A DNA stretch of 64,000 bases from a virus, in IMG/VR virus record IMGVR_UViG_3300025010_000053, positions 6,498 through 70,497 of that record; one strand, written 5' to 3'. The first letter of the stretch is position 1; every line of letters begins with the position of its first letter. The notes beneath the pieces are model-generated. The model saw only the letters and a list, made by a program, of their open reading frames with translations. It was not told where the DNA came from and did not search any database. The translations under genes and the position numbers were made by a program. Below are positions 1 to 31,189 of the stretch, piece by piece.

Positions 1-2
1 TA

Positions 3-185
3 TCAAATTGCAGTGGCGGTGCGATAGAGGCACACAGAGGTTCTCAGGTGCTTAGTGACACCAATAGCGGCGCTAATAATGTAATTGGATTGCGTGCGTG
101 GTCAACTGGATGTATTGCAAAAAGGCTTAGCCAACCCCCCGGAACCACGCCTGAAGCTACTGTGGACGGCGGCCAAATCAGATAG
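3..185 (+). CDS. 3' end of upstream gene, probable tail fibre/spike C-terminus (partial)
   Basis: Frame 3 is open to TAG at 183-185 and ends ...LSQPPGTTPEATVDGGQIR*, resembling beta-helix tail fibre termini. Confidence 0.45.
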   Translation, partial: SNCSGGAIEAHRGSQVLSDTNSGANNVIGLRAWSTGCIAKRLSQPPGTTPEATVDGGQIR

Positions 186-196
186 GCGGTGATTTC

Positions 197-844
197 TTGA
201 ACTTTTCCTCACCATTAAACATTAACAATGAATTAACCCCGGCAAGCGACTTTATGACAATTGTTGCTGACGTGGCGGACACGCCATTTCTACTGACAAA
301 TGATCCTTTGTTAGCTAGTGGAGTATATGAGCAGAAAGTTAAAAACCGCTTTGGTAGCGTCTTAGTTAATCGTGTGAGAGGTTTTGTGTATACAGACCAA
401 AGCGGCACTTTGTACGTCGAAGAACGGTCGGAAGATGGCACGTGGACAGAGCGAAAGCAGGTTACTGTGACGCTAAACACACAAGCAGACACGGGTTGGG
501 TAGCACTAACTAAAAAAATGTATCGGTTTAGGTACGAAAACAATGCCGACGCGCAGGGAGAGTTATATATTTACCAGGCAGTCGGTTTTGGTTTTTCGGC
601 CGGCATATTCAAAGAACCGTTTAGCGGTAGTGAGACGGTTACACACGTATTCAGTCAGACGATGCGGGGGCTAATGATTAAGAATGACGGCGAAGAATCA
701 CTGTCATTTACTATTGACGATGGCCCTTCTGCTGGTGACACGCGGGAGATACTGCCATATGAGGGTTGGAATTTTAACCTCGAACCTTTTACAACTGTGA
801 CGATAACTACAAATGTTGCTTTCCGTGCTGAAGGAGTGAGTTGA
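197..844 (+). CDS. Hypothetical virion/tail-associated protein
   Basis: 215 aa ORF with RBS aggcggtg, in the tail-region operon. Confidence 0.6.
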   Translation: MNFSSPLNINNELTPASDFMTIVADVADTPFLLTNDPLLASGVYEQKVKNRFGSVLVNRVRGFVYTDQSGTLYVEERSEDGTWTERKQVTVTLNTQADTGWVALTKKMYRFRYENNADAQGELYIYQAVGFGFSAGIFKEPFSGSETVTHVFSQTMRGLMIKNDGEESLSFTIDDGPSAGDTREILPYEGWNFNLEPFTTVTITTNVAFRAEGVS

Positions 845-845
845 G

Positions 846-1238
846 ATGTTTTTTACTCCACCACCGATTACGACAGCGCAAAAAACAAGAGTGCTTGTAT
901 TTGCAGTCTCTGGCCCGATTGAGGCAGGTGTGGTCGATGTACCTATTATGTTTCCAACCAAGGGACGCGTTATCCAGGTTGCCGCAAGTTGTCATGTGCC
1001 AAGCAGTACATTGGTTAGTTTATCGGTAGAAAAGACTACTGAGATGGACTTTGCAGCAAATACAGGCTGGCAGTCTATTACCGTTAGTCAAATTCTACTT
1101 CAAGGAGGCAGCAAAGTAAGCGACCCGGCAACGCCAAGAGGTGATCCTATCTCGGAAAGGGATTACTTTAGACTAAACATCTTGGATGAAGTTGCAGGCC
1201 TGGAAGGTTTGTCTGTCGAAGTAGTTATTTTAGTTTAG
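846..1238 (+). CDS. Hypothetical tail-region protein
   Basis: 130 aa ORF coupled to the previous stop; beta-rich. Confidence 0.6.
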   Translation: MFFTPPPITTAQKTRVLVFAVSGPIEAGVVDVPIMFPTKGRVIQVAASCHVPSSTLVSLSVEKTTEMDFAANTGWQSITVSQILLQGGSKVSDPATPRGDPISERDYFRLNILDEVAGLEGLSVEVVILV

Positions 1239-1249
1239 GAGGGGGTTCT

Positions 1250-1744
1250 ATGGGAGCACCAATTTTAACTTTACGAGATCCGATTACTTTACAAGAAATA
1301 CCGCTTACTCTTGCAGCATCCGGTGGGTTTAATCCTGGCATTGTCCGGGCAGGTGGTCAGTCGGAAGAAAAGAGGATTTTAGTTTGCAATAATTTTGACG
1401 GTGTGGACGGTGTTACAGATGCCCACGACTTGACCGTAACGACTTATGACGATTTGAGCTTTAACGAGGTTAAGCCTCCGGTTGTTGGCAAGTGGCTAAA
1501 TGTCCGCTGTCAATCGCTCGGAGACGCTGAATTTACTGCAGTAGGAGGAGTCAGTAACGATCATATAATCGGAGCTGCTGGCACTCCTGGTGTATTGAGC
1601 GGGGTAAAGCCTGCCGGTGCAAGTATGGAGCTTACCGACACTGCAAACTATGCGGATATTTCCCTGAGACTTAACGTTCCTGCTGACTGTATTGACTTTG
1701 GGGATCACGTCATGCAGACGGTTTTTGTATATACGCATGTCTAG
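1250..1744 (+). CDS. Hypothetical tail-region protein
   Basis: 164 aa ORF with RBS aggaggggg. Confidence 0.65.
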   Translation: MGAPILTLRDPITLQEIPLTLAASGGFNPGIVRAGGQSEEKRILVCNNFDGVDGVTDAHDLTVTTYDDLSFNEVKPPVVGKWLNVRCQSLGDAEFTAVGGVSNDHIIGAAGTPGVLSGVKPAGASMELTDTANYADISLRLNVPADCIDFGDHVMQTVFVYTHV

Positions 1745-2192
1745 GCAAAGATTGTTTTGGTTGGCTCAATACGCTGATGGGAAGCAGTTATCTGAGCGTG
1801 AAGGGGTAAGTTTTAGCCTAGTCGATAGATCAAAGCTAATTTCTTTTGGTTTGGAAGGTAACGGCTTTAGAAACTATTTTGATATGGCCGGGACATTTTG
1901 GGTGCAAGGACAGAGGTTTGAGGTGGGACGTGACGGACATAGGTTTACGCCTGGTGAGATACTGCAGTATAAGCACTCTGCTTTTGCTTTAGGTGCGGGC
2001 AGTAGGATTATTCAGCACAATATTGGATTTAGCTGCAATGATGCCAAAGTGCTGTTGTGTGTTCCGACAACAGGGAATCCCGCTTATTTAAAAGCTGAAA
2101 CTGCCGACGAGAGCAGTTTTTTTGTTGCTCGAAATGGCGTGACATTAAGTCAGGTGCGGGTCAATTGCATGAAATGGGAATTAAAGAGGTGA
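1737..2192 (+). CDS. Hypothetical protein
   Basis: ATG at 1737 overlaps the previous stop (MSRQRLFWLAQY...). Confidence 0.6.
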   Translation: MSRQRLFWLAQYADGKQLSEREGVSFSLVDRSKLISFGLEGNGFRNYFDMAGTFWVQGQRFEVGRDGHRFTPGEILQYKHSAFALGAGSRIIQHNIGFSCNDAKVLLCVPTTGNPAYLKAETADESSFFVARNGVTLSQVRVNCMKWELKR

Positions 2193-2196
2193 GAAT

Positions 2197-4728
2197 ATGT
2201 CAGTTGGGCAACAATTATTAGCTCCCGAAGCTGGGTGGGTTAGATTTGACGGGTCAGATCCTAGGGTGGTTTTTATTGCTCCCTCTTCTGCGGCAGTAAA
2301 TCAATGGAAATCAGACGCTAATGCACAATATTATAATGGTGAAGATAGATACTCAGCGGTTATAGGAGCTAGAATATCGTTCCTATTTACTGGAACTAGA
2401 ATAAGATTACTTGATGTGGGAGATCAGTACAGGGCTTATGATGTATCGGTATCAATTGACGGAGTAAGTCAAACAGTATCTTTAGCTAATCTGGGTCCCC
2501 CTCAGACTGTGTTCTTTGAAAAAACTGGACTTCCCAATACAAAACATACTGTACTAATAACTCTGAATGTTGCGAATTATATGGGTTTTGACTGCGTCGA
2601 CATAGATAGTGGTTGCGAGATATTTCATCCTGCATTAGCAAATATGAGAACTGCTTTTGCAGATGTGAGTGTTATTGGAGATTATTTAAAAGCTAGGTAT
2701 GCTGCTTTGAGTGGTGCATTTGGGGCAATATTCGAAGTTGGTAATTGCACTAAGCCAGCCATATTACCTTCTGGGACTGCCACGCCAGATGGTTCATTTC
2801 TCCTGATATTTTGTGGATATGATTCTGAAGGGCGTAAATTATTTATAGCAGATAGAAATATTCAGCATAGCATATCCTACTCCACCCTAGATGCTGCTGG
2901 CATAACTACGGGCATTTCGATACTAGATAGTCCCGGGGTGAAATGTACTCTACAATTACCGACAGGCGGATCTAGCAGTACCGATAAGGATAATGAATGG
3001 GATAATATAGTCGCTGGCTCGTCACTTGGGGGACTTATTACTCCCGGCGATACAAATGTGTGGAATTGGCGTGGTTCTTTAGCAGCAACATGGACAGTTA
3101 ATACTACGACAAACACCAACAAGGTTACCAGAGGAGAGTACAGCTACTCTGGTACTGTCTACGGAACTAATGACGTTTCTTTTTACACAACTCAAAATCC
3201 TAGCACTGCGTCTAATGTAGCAGGATTTAGACCTGTACTTTTGGTTGAATCAACGATATCTGTTAATAACTTAATGACTACTCCGTCATTAGTGCACAAT
3301 TCTAATATTGCACTAACCTGCACATGTACAGCAGAAACTCAAGTCAAATATCAGGTTTCTGTAAACGGCGTGGTTGTGATCCCTTATGGGATATTAGCAT
3401 CTTCTCCAATTAGTGTTAATTTAACATTAGATAACTCCTTGTTTATTGTTGGGACTAACACGGTTCAAGTAACAGCAATGAACGCGATGTCTGAAGCAGT
3501 CTCAGCATCAACCACTGTAACTAAAACCAATATAGCGCCAACCATAAGTGCAATATCGAATACGATCACAAGTTTAGTTGTCAGAATATTAGACGCTGAC
3601 GCCGACAGTGTATCGTACAAGATAGAGCGCTTAGATAGCGATGGAGTAGTTTTGAGCACTATTATCGGAGAGAGAATAGCAGAACTAGATACAGATATTT
3701 TTATTGACCTATCATCCATTGACTTTTATGTCGGAGATCGGATTAAAATCACTACTACTGATGAAATCGGGGCGGTTACTGCACAGATAGTTGACCCTGT
3801 TATTCCTGACGCTGTGATTACAAATCCGGCAGTGGTATCTAATATACACATCGGGGACTCAGAGCTTACCGCTACATTAACAACCGACAAGGGAGAAATG
3901 CTTTACCGCGTCCTGAAAGACGGGGTGGAGATATACCCTTGGGAGCAGGTTACTTCTCCTGTAAACATAGACAAGGCATTGGCAAACAATCTATTTACTG
4001 TCGCTACTGTAAGCACAATAACGCTTGAAGTCAAGAATACTGCTGGAAAAACTGCTTCGTGGCAGGGCTTTGTGACGAAAAATAACACGCGTCCGAGCGT
4101 TACAGCGTCTACCAGTCATATGACATTAACGGCTAATATAACTGACCCGGAGTCAGACACGACGCGGTACAAGCTCAAAGTAAATGGTGTGCAGGTATAT
4201 CCTGAGAGTGACTTTACCGACTTTTTGCCGACTCCTATTGACATTAGCTACAGATTTAATGCCTCAGACGTTATTATTGATGAGCAAAATACACTGCTAA
4301 TTGAATTTGAGGACTCTTTGGGTAGTGCCGGATCATGGGCAATGCCGTTTACGCCTACCTATCAAAATATAATGCTTTTAAATAACGGTCTGTATATGTC
4401 AGATGACATGAGGAATGTATTGAATCGTCCTGACCTAGGCATTGTTAAAGCCGGTGGTATGTCAAGCGTTCTGGAGCTTATGGCCAAGAACATGACCGGA
4501 AAGACGCTGGCAGGTGTACGCATTTGGACTGATACAGTCAATGAGGGACAGACCTATCAATTCAGCAGGACAGCAACTCCGTTTGTAGCGGAAAATGATT
4601 TGTTGATTGAGGAAGAGCTTGTGGACGGTGCAAGTGCTACTTTTTATATGCGTGTTGTGTTGGCGCAGACTGTTACTGCTCCATCGTCTGTAGTCAAGGT
4701 CAGAGTGGAAGAAGTGATAGGGGCGTGA
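2197..4728 (+). CDS. Tail fibre / receptor-binding-like protein (jelly-roll module, C-type-lectin-like domain ending GFRPVL, Ig-like repeats)
   Basis: 843 aa; motifs IADRNIQHSIS...NEWDNIV...VTRG...GFRPVLLVE; Thr/Ser/Val-rich C-terminal domains; sits upstream of the lysis genes. Confidence 0.65.
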   Translation: MSVGQQLLAPEAGWVRFDGSDPRVVFIAPSSAAVNQWKSDANAQYYNGEDRYSAVIGARISFLFTGTRIRLLDVGDQYRAYDVSVSIDGVSQTVSLANLGPPQTVFFEKTGLPNTKHTVLITLNVANYMGFDCVDIDSGCEIFHPALANMRTAFADVSVIGDYLKARYAALSGAFGAIFEVGNCTKPAILPSGTATPDGSFLLIFCGYDSEGRKLFIADRNIQHSISYSTLDAAGITTGISILDSPGVKCTLQLPTGGSSSTDKDNEWDNIVAGSSLGGLITPGDTNVWNWRGSLAATWTVNTTTNTNKVTRGEYSYSGTVYGTNDVSFYTTQNPSTASNVAGFRPVLLVESTISVNNLMTTPSLVHNSNIALTCTCTAETQVKYQVSVNGVVVIPYGILASSPISVNLTLDNSLFIVGTNTVQVTAMNAMSEAVSASTTVTKTNIAPTISAISNTITSLVVRILDADADSVSYKIERLDSDGVVLSTIIGERIAELDTDIFIDLSSIDFYVGDRIKITTTDEIGAVTAQIVDPVIPDAVITNPAVVSNIHIGDSELTATLTTDKGEMLYRVLKDGVEIYPWEQVTSPVNIDKALANNLFTVATVSTITLEVKNTAGKTASWQGFVTKNNTRPSVTASTSHMTLTANITDPESDTTRYKLKVNGVQVYPESDFTDFLPTPIDISYRFNASDVIIDEQNTLLIEFEDSLGSAGSWAMPFTPTYQNIMLLNNGLYMSDDMRNVLNRPDLGIVKAGGMSSVLELMAKNMTGKTLAGVRIWTDTVNEGQTYQFSRTATPFVAENDLLIEEELVDGASATFYMRVVLAQTVTAPSSVVKVRVEEVIGA

Positions 4729-4732
4729 TGCT

Positions 4733-5479
4733 GTGTACAGCAATGACGCTGAGGTATCGCTTAAGACAGGCAATGTCCTGTCCCTTGAAACAGCTTTCAC
4801 AGTTGAGGTTGGTGAGGCCCTATGTCTAGAAACTGGCTTCGTTGTGCCATGGACAAACAATGGGGAAATAGATTTAGCTGTCGGAAAGATTCTGGCACTA
4901 GAGACTAGATTTGTTGTTGAAGTCGGCGAAGCTCTAGGACTAGAAACTGCTTTTGCAGTACCATGGCTAAATGACGCTGAGGTATCGCTTAAGACAGGCA
5001 ATGTCCTGTCCCTTGAAACAGCTTTCACAGTTGAGGTTGGTGAGGCCCTATGTCTAGAAACTGGCTTCGTTGTGCCATACTCGAATAGTGCAGAAATTAG
5101 TTTCAGTATTGACGTTATTGCATCTGGTTTTCTTTCTGTCTATCTTGACACTATAGCTCCTGTTCTGAATATTACTGCGCCTGTCAGCGTGGTAAAAGGC
5201 GAGGATATTGCGGTTCATGTTACGAGCAGTGAGGATTTGGATAACTGGCAGGAGGTTGTCATTAAAGATTCTGCCGGTAATAGTCATGTCGTCACTGGTT
5301 ATTTCGTTAACAAGAGAACGTGGCAGGGCATGATTAGCAGTTCTGTACTGTCTGTCGGTACTGCCCTGGTAACTGCTAGTTTTCGCGATGAGGTGCATAA
5401 CGACGCTACCGAAACGTCAAGTGTCAATATAGCAAGGTCTGTTTTGCTCAGAATGAAAGTTCGAGTGTTCATAATTTGA
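4733..5479 (+). CDS. Repeat-containing Ig-like virion protein
   Basis: Three 38-aa repeats followed by an Ig-like LDTIAPVLNIT domain. Confidence 0.6.
   Translation: MYSNDAEVSLKTGNVLSLETAFTVEVGEALCLETGFVVPWTNNGEIDLAVGKILALETRFVVEVGEALGLETAFAVPWLNDAEVSLKTGNVLSLETAFTVEVGEALCLETGFVVPYSNSAEISFSIDVIASGFLSVYLDTIAPVLNITAPVSVVKGEDIAVHVTSSEDLDNWQEVVIKDSAGNSHVVTGYFVNKRTWQGMISSSVLSVGTALVTASFRDEVHNDATETSSVNIARSVLLRMKVRVFII
4742..5078 (+). repeat. 114-nt period tandem repeat; units 1 and 3 identical over 109 bp (4742-4850 = 4970-5078)
   Basis: Direct sequence comparison. Confidence 0.9.
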
Positions 5480-5524
5480 TCCGTAAGGGTCAATTAATAT
5501 AACTAAATAGGGGAGGGATTTAAA

Positions 5525-6205
5525 ATGGCAAGTAGTATTGAGGTGAATTTAGACATGAGTGGTCCGGCAAATCCAAGTATTTCTCTTGATGGTGGAGCAA
5601 CCTATTCAACATCTCTATTATGCAACAGCACTATTGGCACTGACGATGTAATTACGACTGGGTACCAAATGAAGCTTTGGGGAGACGTTGACGAGTCTGA
5701 AAACGTAAATATCCAGACTGCTGAGGAAGATTCTGAATGGATAAGTTTCAGCACGTCTCAGCAAATTAAGTGGTCTGCCGGTGACGGTACTAAGACTATT
5801 AACTTAAGATTGCGTGACGATGTTTTAAACGAATCAACTGTCGCAACCGACACCATTATCTTGGACACTACTTCACCCATTATTACGATTACTGGTGGCC
5901 CGACTCCGGCCAAGATTTCCAAGGTAACCGGTAAGCGCGTAACTACCTTCAGCTTCCGCTCTGACGAAGGGTTTGAGGCTTACGAGGTTATGGTAGTAGC
6001 TAATGCCGGTGATGGACATGCCTCTGGTACCTTGATTGGAGTAGTAAATGGCTCTGTGAATATGTCAGGTAGTGCAGGCGGGTATGCTGCAGACACTGAC
6101 ATTGAATGCACCTTAGACGGCGCAGATTTAGAGACTGCTGGTGCTGAGGGTGTTAACGTCATTAAGGTATTTGTGCAAGACGAGGCAGGCAACTGGTCTA
6201 TCTAA
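5525..6205 (+). CDS. Ig-like domain virion protein
   Basis: 226 aa, acidic and beta-rich; LDTTSP and VQDEAGNWS motifs; RBS gggaggg. Confidence 0.6.
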   Translation: MASSIEVNLDMSGPANPSISLDGGATYSTSLLCNSTIGTDDVITTGYQMKLWGDVDESENVNIQTAEEDSEWISFSTSQQIKWSAGDGTKTINLRLRDDVLNESTVATDTIILDTTSPIITITGGPTPAKISKVTGKRVTTFSFRSDEGFEAYEVMVVANAGDGHASGTLIGVVNGSVNMSGSAGGYAADTDIECTLDGADLETAGAEGVNVIKVFVQDEAGNWSI

Positions 6206-6364
6206 TCTATCTAGTTGCTTAATTATAAGGAGGGCGAAGGCTCTCCTTTACATAATCATTAATTGTTTTTACGCGTAATATTTGAGGTATACAAAAAGTA
6301 TACAAGTATACCTATGTATACCTCTTCGGAGGTTATTTTTATTTGGTTACCGGGAGATGGTTTT

Positions 6365-6778
6365 ATGGATTTCAACAGAATAAAAGTATGCGCGGGAGTG
6401 CTTGGGACTGCAGTTGGCAGCTCCCTGGGGGCAGTGTTGGGAGGGTGGGACGCGCTACTCAAAGCCTTAGTTATTTTTATCGTGTTGGATTATATTAGTG
6501 GTCTTATTGCCTCTGGCTTTGAAGGCAGGCTTAGCAGTAGGATAGGTTTTCGGGGGGTAGCTAAGAAGGTTTTTATCCTCATACTGGTAGCTGTAGCCTA
6601 TATTATTGATCAACTGATTGGAGCGAACATGATACGTGACGCTGTTGTTGGCTTTTATCTCGGTATAGAGGGACTATCTATACTTGAAAACGCAGGTAGG
6701 GTGGGCATTCCGTTACCTGCTATCTTAAAAAATATGCTAGAAATTTTGAAGTCCAAGAAACAGGAGCAAGGGAAATAA
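6365..6778 (+). CDS. Phage holin (toxin secretion/phage lysis holin family)
   Basis: LGGWDALLKALVIFIVLDYISG...EGLSILENAGRVGIPLP motif. Confidence 0.9.
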   Translation: MDFNRIKVCAGVLGTAVGSSLGAVLGGWDALLKALVIFIVLDYISGLIASGFEGRLSSRIGFRGVAKKVFILILVAVAYIIDQLIGANMIRDAVVGFYLGIEGLSILENAGRVGIPLPAILKNMLEILKSKKQEQGK

Positions 6779-6801
6779 GTTATTTGTTAGGAGTGATGAG
6801 T

Positions 6802-8037
6802 ATGAGAAAAAAACCCGTTCATTACCTGCAATACGACCCTAAGTGGGGTAAAATAATGTTCTCTAACCACAACGACACTAAACAAACAATCGCTTCGTCC
6901 GGTTGTGGTGCTGCGTCATCTGCAATGGTACTTGCTACTTTGCGCGATCCTGCTATTGCGCCGGAAGGTGTGGCTTATGACATAATGGATAGCGGCTATC
7001 GTACCTATAATAATGGCGTAGACTGGGCATGGTTTCCGGTCATGGCTAAAAAATATGGGCTTAGAATGAAGCAAACAACTTCAACTGATGAGACAATTGA
7101 GGAACTCAAGAACAACGCCTTGGTTGTTGCAAGTATGGGCCCGGGATATTTCACAAAGTTTGGCCACTATATTTTGTTGTGGAACGTTGATGAAGCTAAC
7201 AAGATTATTTACGTCAATGATCCGAACAGTACTACCAGAACCAAAGCAGCCTACGACATATTCAAGAAGCAGGCAAGGCAGTATTTCATATTTTACGGGG
7301 AGGCAAAAGGCATGGAGCCAAAACAATTCATCAGTCTACTAGTTCCTGATGCTCAAAAGTTGCAACTGGAATTTGGTATTTTTGCTTCTGTAACGTTAGC
7401 GCAAGCAGCACTGGAAACCGGTTGGGGAAAATTTATGCCAAAGGATAAAAATACCGGTCAGGTAAGCTATAATTTATTCGGCGTAAAAGGTAAGGGTACA
7501 GCCGGTAGCGTACTGTCCCGGACATGGGAGGTATATGACGGCAAGCGGGTTGAAATAGATGCACAATTCAGAGCTTATAATAATTATCTGGAAAGCCTAC
7601 GGGATCATCATGCGTTTCTTATGCAGGACCGTTACATCCCTGTTTGCCAGGCAGTAACACCTGGGGAAGCAGCTGAACAGTTATACAAATGTGGCTATGC
7701 AACTGACCCTGATTATCCAAAGAAGCTTATTGATATAATAAATACCCATAATCTGCAGCAGTATGATATTGTAGTTGCAGAGTGGGCGAGGGAATCATGG
7801 CGGAAGGCTATGGCAAAAGGCATTCTGGATGGCACAAACCCGCAGGGGGCAGTAACCCGGGAAATGCTGGCTGTAATGTTGAACCGCTGTGGATTGCTTG
7901 ACGCAGCTGAGATTCCGCAAAGCTTTGTAGATGCGCTGAAAGCTGCAGGGATAATCAGTAGTGACCACCCTGTTGGCGCAAGGCCGACATGGGGAGAGCT
8001 AGCTTCAGTGATTAGTAAGCTGGAAGTTAAGAAGTAA
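6802..8037 (+). CDS. Endolysin: C39-like cysteine peptidase + GH73 glucosaminidase + C-terminal cell-wall-binding region
   Basis: SGCGAASSAMV and GHYILL; AQAALETGWG, NLFGVKG, GYATDPDY; between two holins. Confidence 0.88.
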   Translation: MRKKPVHYLQYDPKWGKIMFSNHNDTKQTIASSGCGAASSAMVLATLRDPAIAPEGVAYDIMDSGYRTYNNGVDWAWFPVMAKKYGLRMKQTTSTDETIEELKNNALVVASMGPGYFTKFGHYILLWNVDEANKIIYVNDPNSTTRTKAAYDIFKKQARQYFIFYGEAKGMEPKQFISLLVPDAQKLQLEFGIFASVTLAQAALETGWGKFMPKDKNTGQVSYNLFGVKGKGTAGSVLSRTWEVYDGKRVEIDAQFRAYNNYLESLRDHHAFLMQDRYIPVCQAVTPGEAAEQLYKCGYATDPDYPKKLIDIINTHNLQQYDIVVAEWARESWRKAMAKGILDGTNPQGAVTREMLAVMLNRCGLLDAAEIPQSFVDALKAAGIISSDHPVGARPTWGELASVISKLEVKK

Positions 8038-8095
8038 TCTTTGGCCCTGGCTCACGCTGGGGCTTCTTAAATTTTAAAATGGAGGTGCAGTTAGC

Positions 8096-8569
8096 ATGGA
8101 TTTAAGTCAATTCACCCCGGACATGGACACGGCCATTAAGTCACTAATAAGTATACTACTCACAATGGGTGCTTATTATCTTAGGCAGCATTTCACCGAG
8201 AAACAAATGGCTACTGCCAAGGGCATTGCTAAGATAGCTGTGTCTGCAACTGAGCAGTATGCAGCAATAAAGGGAATTAGGGGCGAGGATAAACTGAGTG
8301 ATGCTATTTTGCGGGCTGTTGGGTTAGGAAAAGCGTCAAGGATTAAGTACACTGACGACAAGTGGGATAGCTTAATCCATGATGCGCTGGCTGAGGTTAA
8401 GAAAGTTTGGAACACTACAGACACTACCACCGCCACAGCGCAAACTACCGACATGGTTGTTACTGCTGAATTCGATCAGCTAAAATCAGGGGTAGAGGCG
8501 TCAATTGAACAGTTGCAGAAACAAATAGCTAACTTTTCTGCAGGGGTTATTTTGAAAAAATTAGGCTAA
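8096..8569 (+). CDS. Second holin (LL-H-like)
   Basis: N-terminal TM, IAVSATEQ...G.DKL..A motif, RBS ggaggtg. Confidence 0.7.
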   Translation: MDLSQFTPDMDTAIKSLISILLTMGAYYLRQHFTEKQMATAKGIAKIAVSATEQYAAIKGIRGEDKLSDAILRAVGLGKASRIKYTDDKWDSLIHDALAEVKKVWNTTDTTTATAQTTDMVVTAEFDQLKSGVEASIEQLQKQIANFSAGVILKKLG

Positions 8570-9305: not shown

Positions 9306-9334
9306 TTGTGACCTTGATGCTAAAATGGTATGAT
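9306..9334 (+). promoter_or_regulatory. sigmaA-type promoter of small RNA copy 1
   Basis: TTGTGA-17 nt-TATGAT with TG extension. Confidence 0.7.
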
Positions 9335-9340
9335 ATAGCC

Positions 9341-9410
9341 AACAGATCCTCCCGCGCCTCTCGACGCATGTCGTGATCATGTGAAGCGTACCAGGGGAGG
9401 ACGGCCTTTT
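9341..9410 (+). ncRNA. Small structured RNA, copy 1 (candidate antitoxin-like RNA)
   Basis: aacagatcctcccgcgcctc...gcgtaccaggggaggac shared with 24706-24750; TCCTCCC/GGGAGGA stem; own promoter. Confidence 0.6.
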
Positions 9411-9428: not shown

Positions 9429-9503
9429 TCAACAAAGCTCTCCTTGGCTAAGTTCCTCTAACCCAATGCTCTCCAAAATCTCATCAATCAATTCTTTAGT
9501 CAA
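9429..9503 (-). CDS. 24-aa small acidic peptide MTKELIDEILESIGLEELSQGELC
   Basis: AAAGGAGGTG RBS 7 nt before TTG; upstream TTGACA-18-TAAGAT promoter with TG extension. Confidence 0.6.
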   Translation of the reverse strand: MTKELIDEILESIGLEELSQGELC

Positions 9504-9684
9504 CTATATCCACCTCCTTTCAAAGAGTGACTTGGCTATCTTACCACTAATGGGATTGTCTTGTCAATAAATTACTTATCTTGTTCTGACCAAATAAAAA
9601 AGCTCATCAAGTAGAGTCTAGAAAATCATTATTTGTATCTTTTATGATTATGGTGTATACTATTATCATGAAAGGAGTGATTCT

Positions 9685-9873
9685 ATGCTTATGTGTTCCC
9701 CGCGCGGTGGGGCCAGGACGGGATCTGGGCGACCGCCAAAGCCATCAGAGGAAAAATACAGCTCCCATCACATTAAATTTCTTGACGATGATTGGGAAAA
9801 AGTTAAGCGAAAAGCTAAAGAAAAAGGAATATCGGCTAGTGAATACGTACGGCGAAAAGCTCTGGAGGATTGA
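9685..9873 (+). CDS. Ribbon-helix-helix-type regulator (copy A)
   Basis: RGGARTGSGRP leader, then IKF.DDDWEKVKRKAKEKGISASEYVR; RBS aaaggag. Confidence 0.75.
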   Translation: MLMCSPRGGARTGSGRPPKPSEEKYSSHHIKFLDDDWEKVKRKAKEKGISASEYVRRKALED

Positions 9874-9914: not shown

Positions 9915-9954
9915 TGATTATGGTGTTGACAGATTTCATAGATTAGTGTAAAAT
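9915..9954 (+). promoter_or_regulatory. Strong sigmaA promoter of the accessory operon, abutting a repeated operator
   Basis: TTGACA(9926)-17-TAAAAT(9949); TGATTATGGTGT at 9915-9926 also occurs at 9645-9656. Confidence 0.75.
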
Positions 9955-11596: not shown

Positions 11597-11607
11597 AACG
11601 CAAAAAA

Positions 11608-11635
11608 GTTAGGTCGGGCGGGTTGCCTGGCCTAA
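11608..11635. repeat. 28-nt intergenic hairpin, identical copy at 23308-23335
   Basis: gttaggtcgggcgggttgcctggcctaa; 11-bp stem with G-U pairs. Confidence 0.85.
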
Positions 11636-11664
11636 TCTAAAATAAATATATAGGAGGAATAGAA

Positions 11665-12214: not shown

Positions 12215-12946
12215 ATGAAATTAAGCGTAAACGACGCTGACGGAACTGCTGTTGTCGCAGTACTGAAGTTGAACGGACAACCTGCTGTAGAGAAAATCGA
12301 CTACATCAATTGGGAAGGACAATACCACAAGAACGGAAAGTGGAGCTATACCGAAGGTGGCGTTTCCCTGTGTGATGGCATTGTCTTAATTAAGCATATG
12401 TCTACTCACAGCAGTGCCAACAATCTGCGCTATGCCCACATTGTCGCGGATAATGTGGAGGAGGACAGCATATTTGTCATGGGCGTAGTCTCGGAGCAAG
12501 ACGAATACCCAAAAATGCCTGCCGGTTTTACTCTTGGATACCATGTCTGGGATGCTATCGTGGAAGGGTTTTTGAACATCCCGAATCCCACAGACAGATT
12601 TAAACAGAGCGTTGCCGATGCCCGAGCACGCTGGGAACTTGCAGAGCAATTCAATCCCACCAGGCCGATTACAGTAGAAGGTCCCGTATTTTGGAGTATT
12701 GGCGTAGATGGCCCCTGTACACCATCAGATCCGTTGCCAGTCATGCCGGAAATTCCCCGCGGATCCCTGTTGGTCATCGGTGGACGGGCACCTATTTGGA
12801 GGTATGGCTTAGCCCTACATCAAGCGCACGGATCCGCTGCCGGTGCTGCAGCCACCTTTGATCCAAAGATTGGGGCGGTGGTAGTAGCAACACACAACGC
12901 CAATTGGAAGGAGAGGCAGATTGTCGCTGTGGACTGGCCGTTTTAG
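12215..12946 (+). CDS. csx3: Csx3/Crn3 (CRISPR ring nuclease)-like domain fused to an unknown N-terminal domain
   Basis: C-terminal LLVIGGRAPIWRYGLALHQAH...ATFDPKIGAVVVATH matches the Csx3 signature GRxPxW...H..H...DP(R/K)xGAVVVxxH. Confidence 0.8.
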   Translation: MKLSVNDADGTAVVAVLKLNGQPAVEKIDYINWEGQYHKNGKWSYTEGGVSLCDGIVLIKHMSTHSSANNLRYAHIVADNVEEDSIFVMGVVSEQDEYPKMPAGFTLGYHVWDAIVEGFLNIPNPTDRFKQSVADARARWELAEQFNPTRPITVEGPVFWSIGVDGPCTPSDPLPVMPEIPRGSLLVIGGRAPIWRYGLALHQAHGSAAGAAATFDPKIGAVVVATHNANWKERQIVAVDWPF

Positions 12947-15263: not shown

Positions 15264-15464
15264 ATGCTCATAAAAGAAGACGGCGGACTTTATGACGCGC
15301 ACGAAGAGTGCAATTTAGCTAAAACCTGCGATAAATACAAAACCGTCGGTAAATTTAGCGGTTGTCAGAACATCGGAAGAATAGGAGTCACCTGCTTTTG
15401 CTTAATTAGACCAGATCACCCTCGTATCAAACTTGATCTGGTCTATGTTAAGTGTGAATCTTAG
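15264..15464 (+). CDS. Small Cys-rich hypothetical protein
   Basis: RBS ggagggg; 66 aa with 6 Cys. Confidence 0.5.
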   Translation: MLIKEDGGLYDAHEECNLAKTCDKYKTVGKFSGCQNIGRIGVTCFCLIRPDHPRIKLDLVYVKCES

Positions 15465-16869
15465 AACCGAACTGTTGCCGCACCAAGTACCTGCTGTTGA
15501 GAAAGTGCTGCCGTCTCGTATTGGCGGTCTATTCTGCGACATGGGTACTGGCAAAACGCGCATGTCAATTGAACTGGTTGACCGACGCAAAACCAAAATT
15601 GACAAGGTAATCTGGTTTTGCCCGGTTAGCCTAAAGGAAACGGTCAGACAGGAGATACTCAAGCATACTGACTGTATAGACAGTGACATTTGCGTATTTG
15701 GAGACAGGACAAATGAGAGCAACGTCCCAAGCGTGCCTTGGTATGTTGTAGGGATTGAGTCAATGAGTAGCAGTACCCGCGTGGTCTTGACTGTAAATAA
15801 GCTTATTACCGAGAGTACGATGGTTATCTTGGACGAATCGTCATACATCAAGGGTCACCGCTCAATGCGGACGTTGCGGATTACGGAATTATGCAAACGC
15901 GCACGGTACCGACTCATCTTAACCGGTACTCCGCTGTCTCAGGGAGTAGTTGATCTATTTGCGCAAATGCGTTTTTTATCTCCCAAGATTTTGGGTTACG
16001 AGTCGTTTTACTCTTTCGCGGCGAATCACCTGGAGTATTCGGAAAAGTATCCGGGCATGATTGTTCGTGCTCACAATGTTGAGTACCTGGCCGCGAAAAT
16101 AAAACCTTACATTTACCAGGTTACTAAGGAGGAATGCCTTGATCTTCCGTCGAAACTTTACGAAACTAGGTATTTCAGTATGAGTTACGAACAGCGGCAG
16201 CATTATGAGTGGGCAAAGGAGGAAATCCTTGCCGATCTCCTGGAGGACGATGACGATTCTATTCCGATCTTTAGACTGTTCACTGCTCTGCAGGGTATCG
16301 TCTGCGGGTTTTGGAATCGGAGGATTAGTCGGGGTCATTATCAGAAAATGAGGTTTGAGCATGACCGGGTGAGCACCTTACTCGAAACGATCTATAGCGT
16401 ACCGCGTGACACAAGATTTATTATTTGGGCAAAATATACATATGACATCCAACAGATCGCCGATATGCTGCAGGCCAATTTTGCCGACCAGGGGTTTAGT
16501 TTGTATCATGGTGGGTTATCAGAAAAGCAACGTAACGCCGAAGAAGCTAGATTTCATGCCGGAAATAGATTCTTTGTTGGTACCGCCAAGACCGGCGGGC
16601 ATGGACTAACCTTAAATGAGGCACATTATACTATTTTCTATAATAACTCGTTTAAATACAGCGAACGACTGCAGTCGGAAGATCGGAATCACCGGATTGG
16701 CCAGACCAATAAGGTAACCTATATTGATATTCGCTGTTCGAACAGTATTGACGAAAGAATCGCTGAAAACTTAGCCCAAAAGGGCAATACTGTAAATAGT
16801 TTCCGGAGGGAGGTTGAAAAGGTCAAATATAAAAAAGACCGTCTAAAGGAGTTGATTATGTCGCTGTGA
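15433..16869 (+). CDS. SNF2-family helicase/ATPase
   Basis: DMGTGKT, LDES, LTGTP, QSEDRNHRIGQ. Confidence 0.9.
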   Translation: MIWSMLSVNLRTELLPHQVPAVEKVLPSRIGGLFCDMGTGKTRMSIELVDRRKTKIDKVIWFCPVSLKETVRQEILKHTDCIDSDICVFGDRTNESNVPSVPWYVVGIESMSSSTRVVLTVNKLITESTMVILDESSYIKGHRSMRTLRITELCKRARYRLILTGTPLSQGVVDLFAQMRFLSPKILGYESFYSFAANHLEYSEKYPGMIVRAHNVEYLAAKIKPYIYQVTKEECLDLPSKLYETRYFSMSYEQRQHYEWAKEEILADLLEDDDDSIPIFRLFTALQGIVCGFWNRRISRGHYQKMRFEHDRVSTLLETIYSVPRDTRFIIWAKYTYDIQQIADMLQANFADQGFSLYHGGLSEKQRNAEEARFHAGNRFFVGTAKTGGHGLTLNEAHYTIFYNNSFKYSERLQSEDRNHRIGQTNKVTYIDIRCSNSIDERIAENLAQKGNTVNSFRREVEKVKYKKDRLKELIMSL

Positions 16870-18161
16870 GTAAGAAAAAGTATCTCAAAAAGAACGTGTA
16901 TGAAGCAGCACTGGAACGCGTCAAAACTATTTTCGAAGAGTTCGAAAAGGTGTATGTTTCCTTTTCCGGCGGCAAGGACAGCGGGGTTGTTTTGAACCTT
17001 GTCCTTGATTATATGCGTAAAAACGGGATAACGAATAAAATCGGGGTTCTTGTTGTTGATCTGGAAGGTCAGTATCAAGAAACCATAAATTACATACATA
17101 CCATGCTTACGGACAATGCTGACTTGATAGAACCATACTGGGCATGCTTGCCGCTAAATCTGCGCAATGCTGTGTCAGTCTATCAGCCGTTCTGGTGTTG
17201 CTGGGAGCCAGGACTAGAAGATAGATGGATTAGGCAATTTCCTGACTATCCGGTTATAAAAGATCAGGAATTCTTTCCGTTCTATCAGTACAGAATGGAA
17301 TTTGAAGAATTCGTTCCGAAGTTCGGCAAGTGGTTTTCTGGTGGAGAAAAGACTGCTTGCCTGGTAGGCATACGTTCCGATGAAAGCCTTAACCGATTCA
17401 GAACAATTGTAAGCGACAGTAAAGAGACTTATAGCGGCATAAACTGGACAACGAAGATAGACGAGAATCTTTACAATTGCTATCCAATTTACGATTGGCG
17501 AACTGAAGATATTTGGACCGCCAATGGTAAAAACGGGTGGGAATATAACAAACTCTATGATCTGTTTTACAAGGCCGGTGTCGGCATCCACGATATGCGG
17601 ATTTGCCAGCCCTATGGTGATGACCAACGGATCGGGCTGAATCTGTTCCGGGTTATCGAACCCGAGACATGGGCCAGGGTAGTTAATCGTGTATCCGGGG
17701 CAAACTTTGGTAATATTTATTGTGGTACTAAGGCATTAGGGTATCGTCAGGTACAGCTACCGGCCGGGCATACGTGGAAAAGCTACACAAAGCTTTTACT
17801 TGCATCACTTCCACCCGAAACCAGGGAGAACTATGTTAGCCGGTTTATCCGTTTTATGAGATATTGGAATAGAAACGGGTGTGGGTTGCCAAGTGAATGC
17901 TTTAGCAAACTGCCCCCTTCCGCTGTTGTAACGGATAAGATAGCTACCAGAGGGAATAAGGATAAACGTGTCGTTAGGTACAGGAAAATAGAAGATAGCC
18001 TTGACGGCGATATTGAAAGCAAACACTATGCTCCTACTTGGCGTAGGATGGCCATGTGCATCCTTAAAAATGACCACCTGTGCAAAGGATTGTCGTTTGC
18101 CCAAATCAAGAACCAGGCAGAGCGGCAACGACAGCTGATAGAAAAGTACCGAAATTTGTAG
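16866..18161 (+). CDS. ibrA: IbrA-like PAPS-reductase/PP-loop protein (DUF3440)
   Basis: SFSGGKDS, GIRSDESLNR, YPIYDW..EDIW, MRICQPYGDDQR, PTWRRMAMCILKNDHLC. Confidence 0.85.
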   Translation: MSKKKYLKKNVYEAALERVKTIFEEFEKVYVSFSGGKDSGVVLNLVLDYMRKNGITNKIGVLVVDLEGQYQETINYIHTMLTDNADLIEPYWACLPLNLRNAVSVYQPFWCCWEPGLEDRWIRQFPDYPVIKDQEFFPFYQYRMEFEEFVPKFGKWFSGGEKTACLVGIRSDESLNRFRTIVSDSKETYSGINWTTKIDENLYNCYPIYDWRTEDIWTANGKNGWEYNKLYDLFYKAGVGIHDMRICQPYGDDQRIGLNLFRVIEPETWARVVNRVSGANFGNIYCGTKALGYRQVQLPAGHTWKSYTKLLLASLPPETRENYVSRFIRFMRYWNRNGCGLPSECFSKLPPSAVVTDKIATRGNKDKRVVRYRKIEDSLDGDIESKHYAPTWRRMAMCILKNDHLCKGLSFAQIKNQAERQRQLIEKYRNL

Positions 18162-18173
18162 GGGGTACCGTCC

Positions 18174-18587
18174 ATGAAGATAATTAGACTAACAAACCAG
18201 GACAAAAGCTTTTACTCCACACTGGGGCCGTTTCTGGCCCGTCGTGACGTTGAGCGCGAAATTGGCTACAAGATATACGACGATGACGGAAAAGTGTGGA
18301 TTACTGCTCTTGAATTAAAAAAGGTCGTGGGGTTTTGTTATCTTTGGGAGAAAACAAAAGCACATTATCAGATCGGTAGTTGCTATGTCGTTGAAAAGTA
18401 CCGGCAACAAGGTGTTTTTCGCCAGCTATTTAACAGTGCAATTAAGGATATTAAAGGCGTTGTTACTATGACAACGAAGAATAAATATTTAATGGAAATG
18501 ATAGCTGATGAAGGTTTTATGGAGAGTAAGAAGAGAGGTAGCTTTACTGAGTATGCAAAGGAGTATGGTTCAAATGAAAGCGTTTAA
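18174..18587 (+). CDS. GNAT-family acetyltransferase-like protein
   Basis: YVVEKYRQQGVFRQL acetyl-CoA binding motif A. Confidence 0.7.
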   Translation: MKIIRLTNQDKSFYSTLGPFLARRDVEREIGYKIYDDDGKVWITALELKKVVGFCYLWEKTKAHYQIGSCYVVEKYRQQGVFRQLFNSAIKDIKGVVTMTTKNKYLMEMIADEGFMESKKRGSFTEYAKEYGSNESV

Positions 18588-19083
18588 GAGCCCAGTTTAC
18601 AATGTTATTGCCGTGCCAATTAAAAATATTAGGGCAAATGCTTGGAATCCTAATGCCGTAGCTCCACCCGAAATGAAACTTCTTTATGACTCAATTAAAG
18701 AAGATGGCTATACAATGCCAATAGTTTGTTACTTTAATCCGTCTGATGATACATATGAGATTGTTGACGGGTTTCACCGCTACAGCGTTATGTTGAAACA
18801 TAAGGATATTTATGATCGCGAGAATGGCTGTTTGCCTGTATCTGTGATCGATAAACCAATCAGTGATAGGATGGCTTCAACAATACGCCACAACCGCGCT
18901 AGGGGTACGCATAACATTGACTTGATGAGCAATATCGTGGCCGAGCTTGTTGAAATGGGCAAATCTGATTCCTGGATTGCTAAGCATTTGGGAATGGACG
19001 TTGATGAGTTGCTGCGACTTAAACAAATTACCGGTCTAGTTGCGCTTTTCAGGAGCCGGGAATACTCAAAATCATGGATATAG
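18574..19083 (+). CDS. ibrB: IbrB-like ParB/Srx-domain protein
   Basis: NAWNPNAVAPPEMKLL, IVDGFHRY, MASTIRHNRARG, HLGMDVDELLRLKQITG. Confidence 0.88.
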   Translation: MKAFKSPVYNVIAVPIKNIRANAWNPNAVAPPEMKLLYDSIKEDGYTMPIVCYFNPSDDTYEIVDGFHRYSVMLKHKDIYDRENGCLPVSVIDKPISDRMASTIRHNRARGTHNIDLMSNIVAELVEMGKSDSWIAKHLGMDVDELLRLKQITGLVALFRSREYSKSWI

Positions 19084-23297: not shown

Positions 23298-23362
23298 TCA
23301 AAAAAAGGTTAGGTCGGGCGGGTTGCCTGGCCTAACGAAAAAATAATTTAGGGGGAATTCTA

Positions 23363-23641: not shown

Positions 23642-23690
23642 ATAAAAATCCCACTTGTCTAGTTGGTGAGTGGGGAAAGGAGTTGAGTTG

Positions 23691-23867
23691 ATGCCCAAGG
23701 GCGGAAAGCGCGAGGGAGCCGGGAGACCGGAAATAGCAGACAAATTGATTACCAAGACCTACAGACTTCTTCAGTCGGACATAGAAAAACTGGAGAAGTT
23801 AGCGAAAAAACAGGAAATAACCGCTTCTGAGGTGATGCGGAATTTAATAAGAAGGGAGGGAAATTGA
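23691..23867 (+). CDS. Ribbon-helix-helix-type regulator (copy B)
   Basis: MPKGGKREGAGRP...EKLEKLAKKQEITASEVMRNLI, paralogous to 9685-9873. Confidence 0.7.
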   Translation: MPKGGKREGAGRPEIADKLITKTYRLLQSDIEKLEKLAKKQEITASEVMRNLIRREGN

Positions 23868-24375: not shown

Positions 24376-24705
24376 CACTCCTTTGGTGGTGCTTATTTTT
24401 TTTCGCCATACAGCACTACCTAAACTTCCCATCAGATTATTTTACTCAAAACTAGCATATTTCAATCTATTAGGGAATAGCTTTTGAGTAACGCATTAAC
24501 GAAGTTAAGAGTAACGCAAAAAAGCAGTAGGGCATTTCCGGCACTATTGAAATATATCCGAAATAAGAGTAAAATAAGCATGTTGGCAGACATGTCCGGT
24601 ACCTCGTCAAACCGAAGCCCAGCTATGCTTGGTATTATGTACATAGGGTTGACGGGGTTTTGGCGTCCCATTGACTAATTTATTATCTTTGACTATAATA
24701 GGCCT

Positions 24706-24950
24706 AACAGATCCTCCCGCGCCTCTTAATAATGCGTACCAGGGGAGGACATTAATTTAAAAACTTGATGAGTGCCTGCTGTACCAATCCGTTGTGAAGT
24801 GCGGCAGGCCAAATAAACAAGTTATACTGGTTCCGTTTCGCTTCTGCTTATGTGGTGCGCGATGCGGAGAATACCCAAGAGACGCAGTACACAGCGTTGA
24901 GGGCAACAAAAAACCCCAACTTAGATTAAACTAAGAGGGTTTTTTTGTTT
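24706..24950 (+). ncRNA. Structured ncRNA of ~245 nt starting with RNA motif copy 2
   Basis: TTGACT-17-TATAAT promoter (24671-24699), conserved core 24706-24750, further stems, terminator 24905-24949, no convincing ORF. Confidence 0.6.
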
Positions 24951-25133
24951 GGGTACCTTTTTTAAGGGTTTTAGTGGCTATATCCTTGGCAGCTCTGTTG
25001 ATGTCGTAGCTGTCGCGGTCGTATTCCTTGCCTATAAGTTTTGATGTTTTTAATACTGATAACAAAACAATCACCTCTGGCAGTATTATTTCCCGAGTCA
25101 ATGTTGAATATACATAACAAAGGGGTGATTTTA

Positions 25134-25523: not shown

Positions 25524-25633
25524 ATTACCTTCGGTAGGCTCTATTTTTATTGGAATAGTGGACAAGCAATAAGACATAAAATTGTAACACATATTAAACA
25601 GAACGGTTTAACATTTTGAAAGGTGGTTATCGA

Positions 25634-26206
25634 ATGATCATAAAAATCAACGGCAAACCATTAAATTATAGACAGTCAGCAGAAAAACCAGTTAAAAACG
25701 AAGCTTTTACATGGCAGACCAAAGTTAAAAAATCAACCAATATCCAAGTCAGACCCGAATCATCCCCGGTAGCAGTTACCAAACCACAACCAAAAACCGA
25801 AACTTTGCGCGACAGACTGGCCCGCATTCGTGAGGCTGCCAAGCGCCACATACTACCTTTGACTACAGGCATAAACCTCCTGGCTACTGCTCCAATCTCA
25901 GCCATGACAGGGCAGTACAGCGTAGCAAATCAGGCAGTACCAGTCGCAAATACGGCCTACATCGGCATTGCTCCGGCATTGCAGCCCGTTATCTCGATGT
26001 TGCAGGAGTTAGCTTTACCTGTCGGTATCGGCATGGCTATTTGGGGATTAATTGAAATTATAATCGGCAATCCCGGAGGCAAGGACAAAATCAAGTATGC
26101 CATGCTTGGTTACATCGGGGTGTTTATTATCCCATTTTTCTTCTACCAGATCAAGGGGGCGCTCAGCGTTATGCCTCTCGCTATGGGACTGCTGGGGGTG
26201 GCGTAA
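25634..26206 (+). CDS. Membrane protein with TrbC/VirB2 pilin-like C-terminus
   Basis: LQELALPVGIGMAIWGLIEIIIGNPGGKDKIKYAMLGYIGVFIIP. Confidence 0.55.
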   Translation: MIIKINGKPLNYRQSAEKPVKNEAFTWQTKVKKSTNIQVRPESSPVAVTKPQPKTETLRDRLARIREAAKRHILPLTTGINLLATAPISAMTGQYSVANQAVPVANTAYIGIAPALQPVISMLQELALPVGIGMAIWGLIEIIIGNPGGKDKIKYAMLGYIGVFIIPFFFYQIKGALSVMPLAMGLLGVA

Positions 26207-26443
26207 TTGCCTGGAATGGCTGCTTGGTTGGTCGGGATGGGACTGAAAAAGCTGACTGGGTGGGTTACTGTTATTACTGGAGTCGGGACAGCGTTTTACT
26301 ACTATTCGTTTGAATTTTGCCTTATGGGCGCTATGGTGTCGTTGCTTTTCTCGATGTTTGGCTTTTCTCTGGCCCGGAAGGGTGTGCTGTTTTCGGTGGC
26401 GTTGTATGTGGTGGTGCAGGTTGTTGGTGCATCATTAAAATAA
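26207..26443 (+). CDS. Small two-TM membrane protein
   Basis: Hydrophobic; coupled to the upstream gene. Confidence 0.6.
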   Translation: MPGMAAWLVGMGLKKLTGWVTVITGVGTAFYYYSFEFCLMGAMVSLLFSMFGFSLARKGVLFSVALYVVVQVVGASLK

Positions 26444-26453
26444 AAACGGCGTC

Positions 26454-26687
26454 CTATGCTCTAAACTTAATAGCATCAATATGATTATCGTGGTAAGCAA
26501 CTTTCAGATCACTGCCACTATAAAGAGCATTATCTAGTTCATCCATAAAGAAACTTATCCATTTACCAATTTTAGTTTCAACAATAACGAACGATTTATT
26601 TGTTTTGTCACCCGTTAATACTTCAAGAGTTCTGTTTATAATCGGCACGATGCCGTCAGTAGTTTTAATGTGTTTAAGATTTATCAT
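26454..26687 (-). CDS. Hypothetical protein
   Basis: ATG after aaaggagtg. Confidence 0.55.
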   Translation of the reverse strand: MINLKHIKTTDGIVPIINRTLEVLTGDKTNKSFVIVETKIGKWISFFMDELDNALYSGSDLKVAYHDNHIDAIKFRA

Positions 26688-26938
26688 TTCCAGCACTCCT
26701 TTTTGTGTTTGATTATATTTTGCGCAGGATGAGCGTGTATTATACACATTTTAAAAGAGAGGGAGGAATAACTGTGAGCAGAAATATTGACGATGCTATA
26801 AGCTGTCTAAAAGGATTAAAGCCTAAGTCTGACGCCGATAAAAAGAAAATCCAGAAGAAAGTAAAAGAACTGCAGTCTTTGAAGCGCGAGGGCTGGTAAA
26901 ATAAAAACCGCCCGTAGGCGGTTAATTAATAGACGATT

Positions 26939-27193
26939 CTACCATTCTTTCCAAAAAGGAATCATGGCAGACCGTATGCCTGACTCTCTGTGGGATAAAA
27001 TATCGTCTTCCCAGTAAACTTCCGTCTGTCTGGTGACAATATTTAAATGTTCTTCCCTGATTACATTTTCGGCTTCCGTGGAGCTTTTGCAGGTTGCTGT
27101 GTGGCCCGCCCAATCCACAGAGTAAACATGATTCCTATATTTACGGTCTGGCAATGGCACATAAACGACTAAAGTTAAAATTGCATCTTTCAT
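26939..27193 (-). CDS. Hypothetical protein
   Basis: AGAAGGAGGAATTTTGATG start context, identical to that of 27254-27484. Confidence 0.6.
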   Translation of the reverse strand: MKDAILTLVVYVPLPDRKYRNHVYSVDWAGHTATCKSSTEAENVIREEHLNIVTRQTEVYWEDDILSHRESGIRSAMIPFWKEW

Positions 27194-27253
27194 CAAAATT
27201 CCTCCTTCTGTGGTTTTAACGGTTGACCACAAACCGGATTTTTTTGATATCCG

Positions 27254-27484: not shown

Positions 27485-27499
27485 CAAAATTCCTCCTTC

Positions 27500-27664: not shown

Positions 27665-27665
27665 A

Positions 27666-27863: not shown

Positions 27864-27933
27864 TTGTTTAATCCCCTTTCGTTTAAGCGTTACCGCTTGT
27901 CAAACACTATTTTTAAAAAAAGTAGGTGATTTT

Positions 27934-30576: not shown

Positions 30577-30578
30577 TA

Positions 30579-31182: not shown

Positions 31183-31189
31183 CTCATTA

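Follow-up and report, generated by a model that had tools for sequence, protein, structure and literature searches.

AbiF (Pfam Abi_2, an HEPN RNase) is the toxin of a type III toxin–antitoxin abortive-infection system, and the abiF RNA (AbiFr) is its antitoxin (PMC12373285). The RNA family is covered by Weinberg 2017, Saunier 2025 (PMC12373285) and Zilberzwige-Tal 2025, the last through two reviews (PMC12737573, PMC13064643); abiF goes unmentioned in the Weinberg 2017 main text. RCd22, an RNA from a C. difficile prophage, carries two abiF motifs, binds AbiF directly and neutralises it in cis as well as in trans. Mutations that break its stem abolish neutralisation and compensatory ones restore it (PMC12373285). 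In the PbAbiF dimer, according to the reviews, each monomer holds one RNA, whose bulge nucleotides block the HEPN site (PMC12737573, PMC13064643). In the literature, neutralisation in trans is described for RCd22 and PbAbiFr only (PMC12373285, PMC12737573), and the demonstration of AbiF as an RNA-antitoxin system and likely Cas13 ancestor dates from no earlier than 2025. AbiF and its RNA are reported as the ancestors of Cas13 and the crRNA (PMC12737573).

Two earlier observations place RNAs of this general kind in phages. Pseudo-ToxI of the Pectobacterium phage phiTE resembles a type III antitoxin, occurs in a phage without the toxin and has been proposed to inhibit the host toxin (Blower 2012, as cited in PMC13064643). 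Matches to Rfam family RF03085 (abiF RNA) inside phage genomes have also been annotated already, in cyanophage S-CREM1 and in three further cases in Rfam (PMC9964418). These are annotations only, made before the antitoxin role was known; they draw no link to AbiF evasion and leave the presence of a toxin gene unstated.

The window analysed here, a stretch of 64,000 nucleotides, makes up the greater part of a viral contig of 70.5 kb in IMG/VR that comes from groundwater metagenomes (81% complete by CheckV). It contains two loci that are very probably orphan AbiF-type antitoxin RNAs. Like abiF/AbiFr/RCd22 (RF03085), they combine a two-helix hairpin, a loop that starts with CCUCU, a 3′ bulge and an AACAGA leader, and they stand just after a sigma-70 promoter with a U-rich 3′ flank. 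Unlike the described members, they have no Abi_2 gene downstream or elsewhere in the phage, the terminal loop of one copy is enlarged, and they form two dispersed single-motif genes, whereas PbAbiF has one leader and RCd22 is a two-motif RNA. A preliminary description had proposed that the pair are mimics of an RNA antitoxin, with a likeness to RNAs beside AbiF or DUF3800-type toxins. The identification as abiF RNA, the lack of a partner toxin gene and the association of homologues with AbiF held up, and the DUF3800 likeness did not.

The two RNA loci and their genomic setting

The source is, by its predicted gene content, a temperate tailed phage, and reads carrying window sequence came from groundwater DNA runs only. 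Its main features are as follows.

1–8569, tail genes, endolysin (6784–8037) and holin (8096–8569)
about 9.3–31 kb, accessory region, some 22 kb long, in which both RNA copies lie
31108–31182, tRNA
31224–32708 (minus), serine integrase
34221–35408 (minus), ImmA/HTH repressor pair, with early genes from about 36 kb

Both RNAs lie between the lysis genes and the integrase, an interval that is the usual site of accessory genes. The two loci and their flanks comprise the following elements.

9306–9334 (plus), copy 1 promoter, TTGTGA-17-TATGAT with an extended TG, from a consensus scan
9341–9402 (plus), abiF-type RNA copy 1 (Rfam core 9348–9401)
24486–24518 (plus), direct repeat pair GAGTAACGCA (23 nt apart), located upstream of the ancestral promoter and kept in related phages
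24671–24699 (plus), copy 2 promoter, TTGACT-17-TATAAT, 11/12 matches
24706–24750 (plus), abiF-type RNA copy 2, a minimal form with an 11-nt terminal loop (Rfam core 24713–24749)
24751–24904 (plus), predicted variable 3′ tail of the copy 2 transcript, holding an 11-bp hairpin
24905–24950, terminator-like hairpin with flanking U and A runs, common to related phages

The preliminary description had reported arms shared exactly between the two loci around a variable loop of 25 versus 8 nt, and the coordinates and lengths proved correct. The 20-nt arm occurs at 9341–9360 and 24706–24725 and the 17-nt arm at 9386–9402 and 24734–24750, each on the plus strand with zero mismatches in the window; shuffles gave 0.00 and 0.08 matches expected by chance. 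The intervening sequence is 25 nt in copy 1 (9361–9385, with CGAC..GTCG inside) and 8 nt in copy 2 (24726–24733). Also as described, a −35/17/−10 promoter precedes each copy, the sigma-70-like elements ending 6 nt before the shared sequence in both cases, and the arms pair (TCCTCCC/GGGAGGA and CGC/GCG). Copy 2 folded at −14.9 kcal/mol (z = −2.3 versus shuffles) with the proposed hairpin formed. Copy 1 consists of an AACAGAU leader, helices of 6 bp (outer) and 3 bp (inner), a UACCAG 3′ bulge and a terminal loop widened by an insertion that can itself form a small hairpin. It folded with the same outer and inner helices as copy 2, although alone its stability was no better than that of its own shuffles (z = −0.15).

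The copy 2 site is syntenic in the viral relatives G001, G003 and G005 and in the metagenome contig L064, where the RNA and its upstream stretch are kept; copy 1 was seen in this phage alone among the related phages compared. The copy 1 promoter is 82% identical to the promoter region of G001–G003 and is evidently of the ancestral type, like that ahead of the RNA in related phages. The copy 2 promoter sits inside an insertion of about 130 nt that is absent from related phages and supplies a new consensus promoter. The GAGTAACGCA repeat pair further upstream may be an operator. Sequence 3′ of the RNA is unrelated from one related phage to the next, and no ORF with a ribosome-binding site was found between the copy 2 RNA and the terminator. 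The hairpin at 24905–24950 closes both the copy 2 unit and a convergent 56-aa ORF (24931–25101, minus). On this predicted layout copy 2 is a standalone small-RNA gene (promoter, RNA, variable tail, terminator) and does not serve as leader for the HTH gene near 25.1 kb.

In G005 the stem of the orthologous RNA is GCCGCC/GGCGGU instead of CCUCCC/GGGAGG, and G005 carries an additional second copy in divergent orientation. This structure-keeping change between orthologous phage loci, together with the duplication, suggests that the RNA is under selection in phages. A tRNA begins about 10 nt 3′ of the RNA in the relative G007 (L026, 1414–1549), a tRNA-like element lies 3′ of it in L064 (about 7485–7620) on a by-eye reading for which ARAGORN makes no call, and in the Streptococcus prophage Javan420 (L070, 1841–2042) the RNA comes after a tRNA. 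The position beside a tRNA or tRNA-like element in three phages suggests co-transcription and trimming by tRNA processing enzymes.

The genes around the copies are RHH and HTH genes, and the accessory region also has a gene with a Csx3 domain, a tyrosine recombinase and two modules, one SNF2/PAPS-reductase/GNAT and the other a Walker A/B ATPase module; PHROGs and PADLOC gave no functional information on the neighbouring genes except for Csx3. The 243-aa protein encoded at 12215–12946 (plus), 3 kb downstream of copy 1, matches Csx3 in its C-terminal part (Pfam 5e−14; PADLOC Csx3 2e−18). Csx3 is a domain family associated with CRISPR loci and a reported ring nuclease, and the phage protein may counter type III CRISPR. 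Paralogous small RHH-like proteins lie near each copy (9685–9873 and 23670–23867, both plus; 39% identity, E 7e−11), and a 49-nt hairpin-containing repeat (86% identity) at 11602–11650 and 23302–23350 marks two cassettes. Together the paralogues and the repeat suggest modular duplication of accessory cassettes. The 12-nt word TGATTATGGTGT, found at 9645–9656 (the start of the RHH gene region) and again 270 nt on at 9915–9926, may likewise be an operator. A 24-aa ORF at 9429–9503 (minus), with a strong ribosome-binding site AAAGGAGGTG 7 nt before a TTG start and a promoter-like site at 9567–9538, is convergent with copy 1, so that its transcript would run antisense towards the RNA.

Elsewhere in the region, an SNF2 helicase, a PAPS-reductase/DUF3440 protein, a GNAT acetyltransferase and a 191-aa ORF stand in a row at 15433–19083 (plus) and may form a phage-carried DNA-modification or defence module. 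Downstream of copy 2, 25616–30935 (plus) encodes a membrane protein that matches Maff2 and T4SS-pilin weakly, then an ATPase of 937 aa with Walker A/B motifs and a DUF7678 protein, a module kept in G003 at 77–81% DNA identity. The 937-aa protein was considered as a two-HEPN nuclease and rejected, being a Walker A/B ATPase with no family match.

Assignment to the abiF RNA family

In the Rfam covariance-model search that the preliminary description had called for, run in E-value mode, RF03085 was the top match at both loci and the sole family common to both. Its gathering score of 37 was reached by neither copy: copy 2 scored 36.8 bits (E 3.7e−5), 0.2 bits short, and copy 1, whose terminal loop carries a 19-nt insertion, scored 23.9 bits. 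AbiF-adjacent bacterial RNAs of the same subfamily themselves score 28–44.7 bits against RF03085, so 36.8 bits falls within the range of real members, some of which the threshold of 37 drops. No DUF3800 covariance model was listed around either copy in Rfam at E up to 10, and that part of the likeness is unsupported.

The abiF part was reinforced by a second covariance model, R1, made from 11 RNAs only, all directly upstream of Abi_2/AbiF genes. R1 scored copy 2 at 69.2 bits (E 7e−18) and copy 1 at 40.2 bits (E 5e−9), with the next-best match in the window, on a terminator, at 15.7 bits, and by this model both copies belong to the UACCAG-bulge subfamily. A weak R1 match at 31188–31227 was rejected as a further RNA copy, as it is the terminator after the tRNA.

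Helix pairing in a 23-sequence alignment was 97.6% of cells, compared to 28–52% when the partner was slid by 1–3 columns. As many columns are fixed by the search pattern and true matches were picked by stem pairing, the covariation evidence comes down to two pairs that vary on both sides (CG/UA and AU/CG/GC); at these two pairs compensatory changes uphold the outer 6-bp and inner 3-bp helices. Megablast of both regions returned no near-identical sequence in GenBank phages.

AbiF linkage in bacteria and orphan copies in phages

A degenerate RNA pattern scanned over all species-representative genomes gave 23 stretches, in 15 of which the stem pairs. Several pattern matches with an unpaired 3′ stem were set aside by eye (L009–L012, L015, L016, L018, L020–L022, L031, L033, L034, L038, L039, L048, L049 and L051). 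The 15 stem-pairing stretches were mostly from Bacillota (Pelotomaculum, Brevibacillus, Aneurinibacillus, Eubacteriales and Bacilli MAGs). Ten of the 14 loci with enough downstream sequence had a same-strand AbiF gene no more than about 115 nt 3′ of the RNA. Pfam Abi_2 was confirmed in all six downstream genes tested (E 1e−51 to 1e−54), and one such AbiF protein matched the solved PbAbiF structure (PDB 8VZ6) at E 2.8e−33. A Legionella plasmid has the same arrangement, RNA then AbiF. The expectation in the preliminary description that homologues would stand beside toxin or Abi genes was thereby borne out. The AbiF-linked and phage RNAs have in common the AACAGA leader, the −10 spacing, CCUCU at the start of the loop, CGC/GCG as the inner helix, the UACCAG bulge and a 3′ flank rich in U. 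The exact stem of the phage was found at no bacterial AbiF locus in the species-representative genomes or metagenome contigs.

The remaining four of the 14 bacterial loci are orphans, one of them adjoining an IS21 element. L017, a small ‘viral’ fragment, has the RNA followed by only the first ~85 nt of an abiF gene. This stub and the four bacterial orphans indicate that orphans can arise by decay. In a Legionellales MAG (L037), tandem abiF-type RNAs at 3013–3068 and 3145–3208, about 80 nt apart, have no AbiF gene downstream, so that the pair looks like an orphan version of RCd22's two-motif layout.

In the phage itself, the absence of an adjacent toxin-sized gene, already remarked in the preliminary description, was confirmed 3′ of both copies and extends to the whole 70.5-kb contig, none of whose six frames matched Abi_2 with either Pfam or a subfamily HMM run without filters. 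AbiF was likewise absent from the viral relatives G001, G002, G003 (100% complete by CheckV), G005 and G007, and none was seen in two metagenome contigs with the exact stem of the phage (L064 and L065). An intact adjacent AbiF gene was a feature of 10/14 bacterial loci versus 0/11 viral-type loci (Fisher test, P = 5e−4). Without an Abi_2/HEPN gene downstream, the two loci do not make up a complete AbiF type III toxin–antitoxin system. They do have the properties of a phage antitoxin-RNA mimic: they are phage-encoded, resemble a host antitoxin and have no cognate toxin in the phage.

Carriers in other phages were found by a short blastn search and with R1. Some 10 cultured Enterococcus phages (phiSHEF4 group) have orphan copies, virulent ones included; that of phiSHEF4 (NC_042022, about 34818–34875) is located between terS and terL and preceded by an extended −10 promoter (RF03085 31.1 bits, R1 34.9 bits). 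The crAss-like phage cr7_1 has an orphan RNA (R1 55.1 bits), as does Javan420, whose RNA (R1 28.2 bits) has an entirely different 8-bp outer helix. Abi_2 had no match in the three complete genomes of phiSHEF4, cr7_1 and Javan420. cr7_1 (NC_055895; L069, 825–917) also holds an RT-17 RNA motif (38.6 bits versus a gathering score of 40.4) just upstream of an annotated reverse transcriptase gene and about 1.6 kb from the abiF-type RNA.

Possible functions of the orphan RNAs

We consider it probable (roughly 0.6) that both RNAs act as anti-AbiF decoys, which would hold the host toxin in its inhibited state in the course of infection or following induction. Under this proposal, host RNA polymerase would transcribe the RNAs from their sigma-70 promoters, and the hairpin would offer the same unpaired nucleotides as the host antitoxin (loop CCUCU, bulge UACCAG). 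The phage RNA would then bind the host AbiF dimer, the nuclease would stay inhibited where infection would otherwise have released it, and the phage or induced prophage would thus escape abortive infection. The decoy proposal is well motivated by the abiF identity of the RNAs, their orphan status and the linkage of homologues to AbiF. Moreover, given that RCd22 neutralises in trans and that the phage RNAs present the same unpaired nucleotides on a different stem, they should be able to occupy AbiF. The Csx3 gene 3 kb from copy 1 fits a counter-defence neighbourhood. Against the proposal, the specificity of a type III antitoxin is often confined to its own toxin, and copy 1 is under the Rfam threshold and folds no better than shuffled sequence.

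Decay, which also yields orphans (4/14 bacterial loci and the L017 stub), is a further point against a decoy role and has a reading of its own, in which the lineage once held a full AbiF system, like that of the C. difficile prophage, lost the toxin and now carries functionless relics. Prophages with full AbiF systems are known (PMC12373285), and both the orphans in bacterial contigs, one beside IS21, and the RNA of L017 with only ~85 nt of abiF fit such a history. However, no abiF coding trace lies downstream of either copy, and at least five diverged phages keep the RNA and its promoter at the syntenic site with a replaced tail downstream. The compensatory stem change between orthologous phage loci, the duplication of the RNA inside one phage and its presence in virulent Enterococcus phages also speak against decay, which we regard as unlikely. 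The RNAs could instead be antitoxins or regulators of a phage partner unlike Abi_2, encoded elsewhere or in the ~19% of the genome that CheckV estimates to be missing from this 81% complete contig. Many neighbouring ORFs are without a family match and a paralogous RHH gene lies near each copy, as such a partner would allow. It appears decidedly unlikely, as neither Pfam Abi_2 nor the unfiltered subfamily HMM matches any of the six frames, the 100% complete relative and three complete GenBank phage genomes are also without Abi_2, and no protein gene is consistently 3′ of the RNA across phages.

A cis-acting role has a precedent in RCd22, which lowers abiF transcription in cis (PMC12373285), and in AbiF loci the motif is a 5′ leader followed by a U-rich tract. 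The hairpin might in the same way act as a leader or attenuator that governs read-through into downstream phage genes, and in G001 a 60-aa ORF indeed begins 21 nt after the RNA. Yet the stretch from copy 2 to the terminator and the convergent gene lacks any ORF with a ribosome-binding site, the RHH gene 284 nt after copy 1 has its own promoter-like site, and downstream content differs in every phage examined, making attenuation very unlikely. Finally, the conserved hairpin with its hypervariable 3′ tail could be imagined as a guide-like RNA that loads on the host AbiF/Cas13-ancestor nuclease and redirects it against rival elements or host transcripts. Such an RNA would parallel, on the viral side, the AbiF-to-Cas13 transition, and we think both the role and the parallel extremely improbable. 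Complementarity of the 3′ tails to the phage’s own genome did not exceed 12 nt, which is the chance level and leaves external targets neither supported nor excluded.

Returning to the anti-AbiF decoy, pseudo-ToxI of phiTE is to our knowledge the only antitoxin-RNA mimic known. It targets ToxN, whereas the target of the phage abiF-type RNAs would be the HEPN toxin AbiF, and ToxI is a tandem-repeat pseudoknot processed by its toxin, unlike the phage hairpins. Escape of phiTE was demonstrated genetically, whilst the decoy role here is a proposal drawn from sequence. In comparison to pseudo-ToxI, the phage abiF-type RNAs are natural, conserved and dispersed over several phage lineages. Camara-Wilpert et al. 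are said to have described in 2023 RNA anti-CRISPRs (Racrs), solitary CRISPR repeat units in phages that reportedly divert Cas proteins into dead-end complexes. The likeness is that a host nuclease's RNA handle occurs singly in the phage while the nuclease is absent; the difference is that Racrs are reported to lead to dead-end Cas complexes, whereas an AbiF mimic would restore the normal inhibited state of the toxin. S-CREM1 and the three Rfam phage hits (PMC9964418) share with our loci the occurrence of RF03085 inside phage genomes.

The RNA family and its antitoxin role are already known. What is new here is apparently the extension of phage antitoxin-RNA mimicry, previously established for ToxIN, to the AbiF family, in which it would be widespread. 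We found no paper that reads orphan abiF-type phage RNAs as anti-AbiF decoys, in a literature where Zilberzwige-Tal 2025 was covered through reviews only. If the proposal is true, these RNAs would be a second, natural family of RNA-based anti-toxin–antitoxin decoys, spanning groundwater Bacillota phages, cultured Enterococcus phages, a crAss-like phage and a Streptococcus prophage. The decoy idea could be put to a direct test in the cultured Enterococcus phages. If it is true, the motif would serve as a simple sequence marker of anti-AbiF counter-defence, with a bearing on the choice of phages for AbiF-carrying hosts, and the family would provide a natural set of RNA variants with which to map AbiF recognition, in parallel to the RNA anti-CRISPRs.
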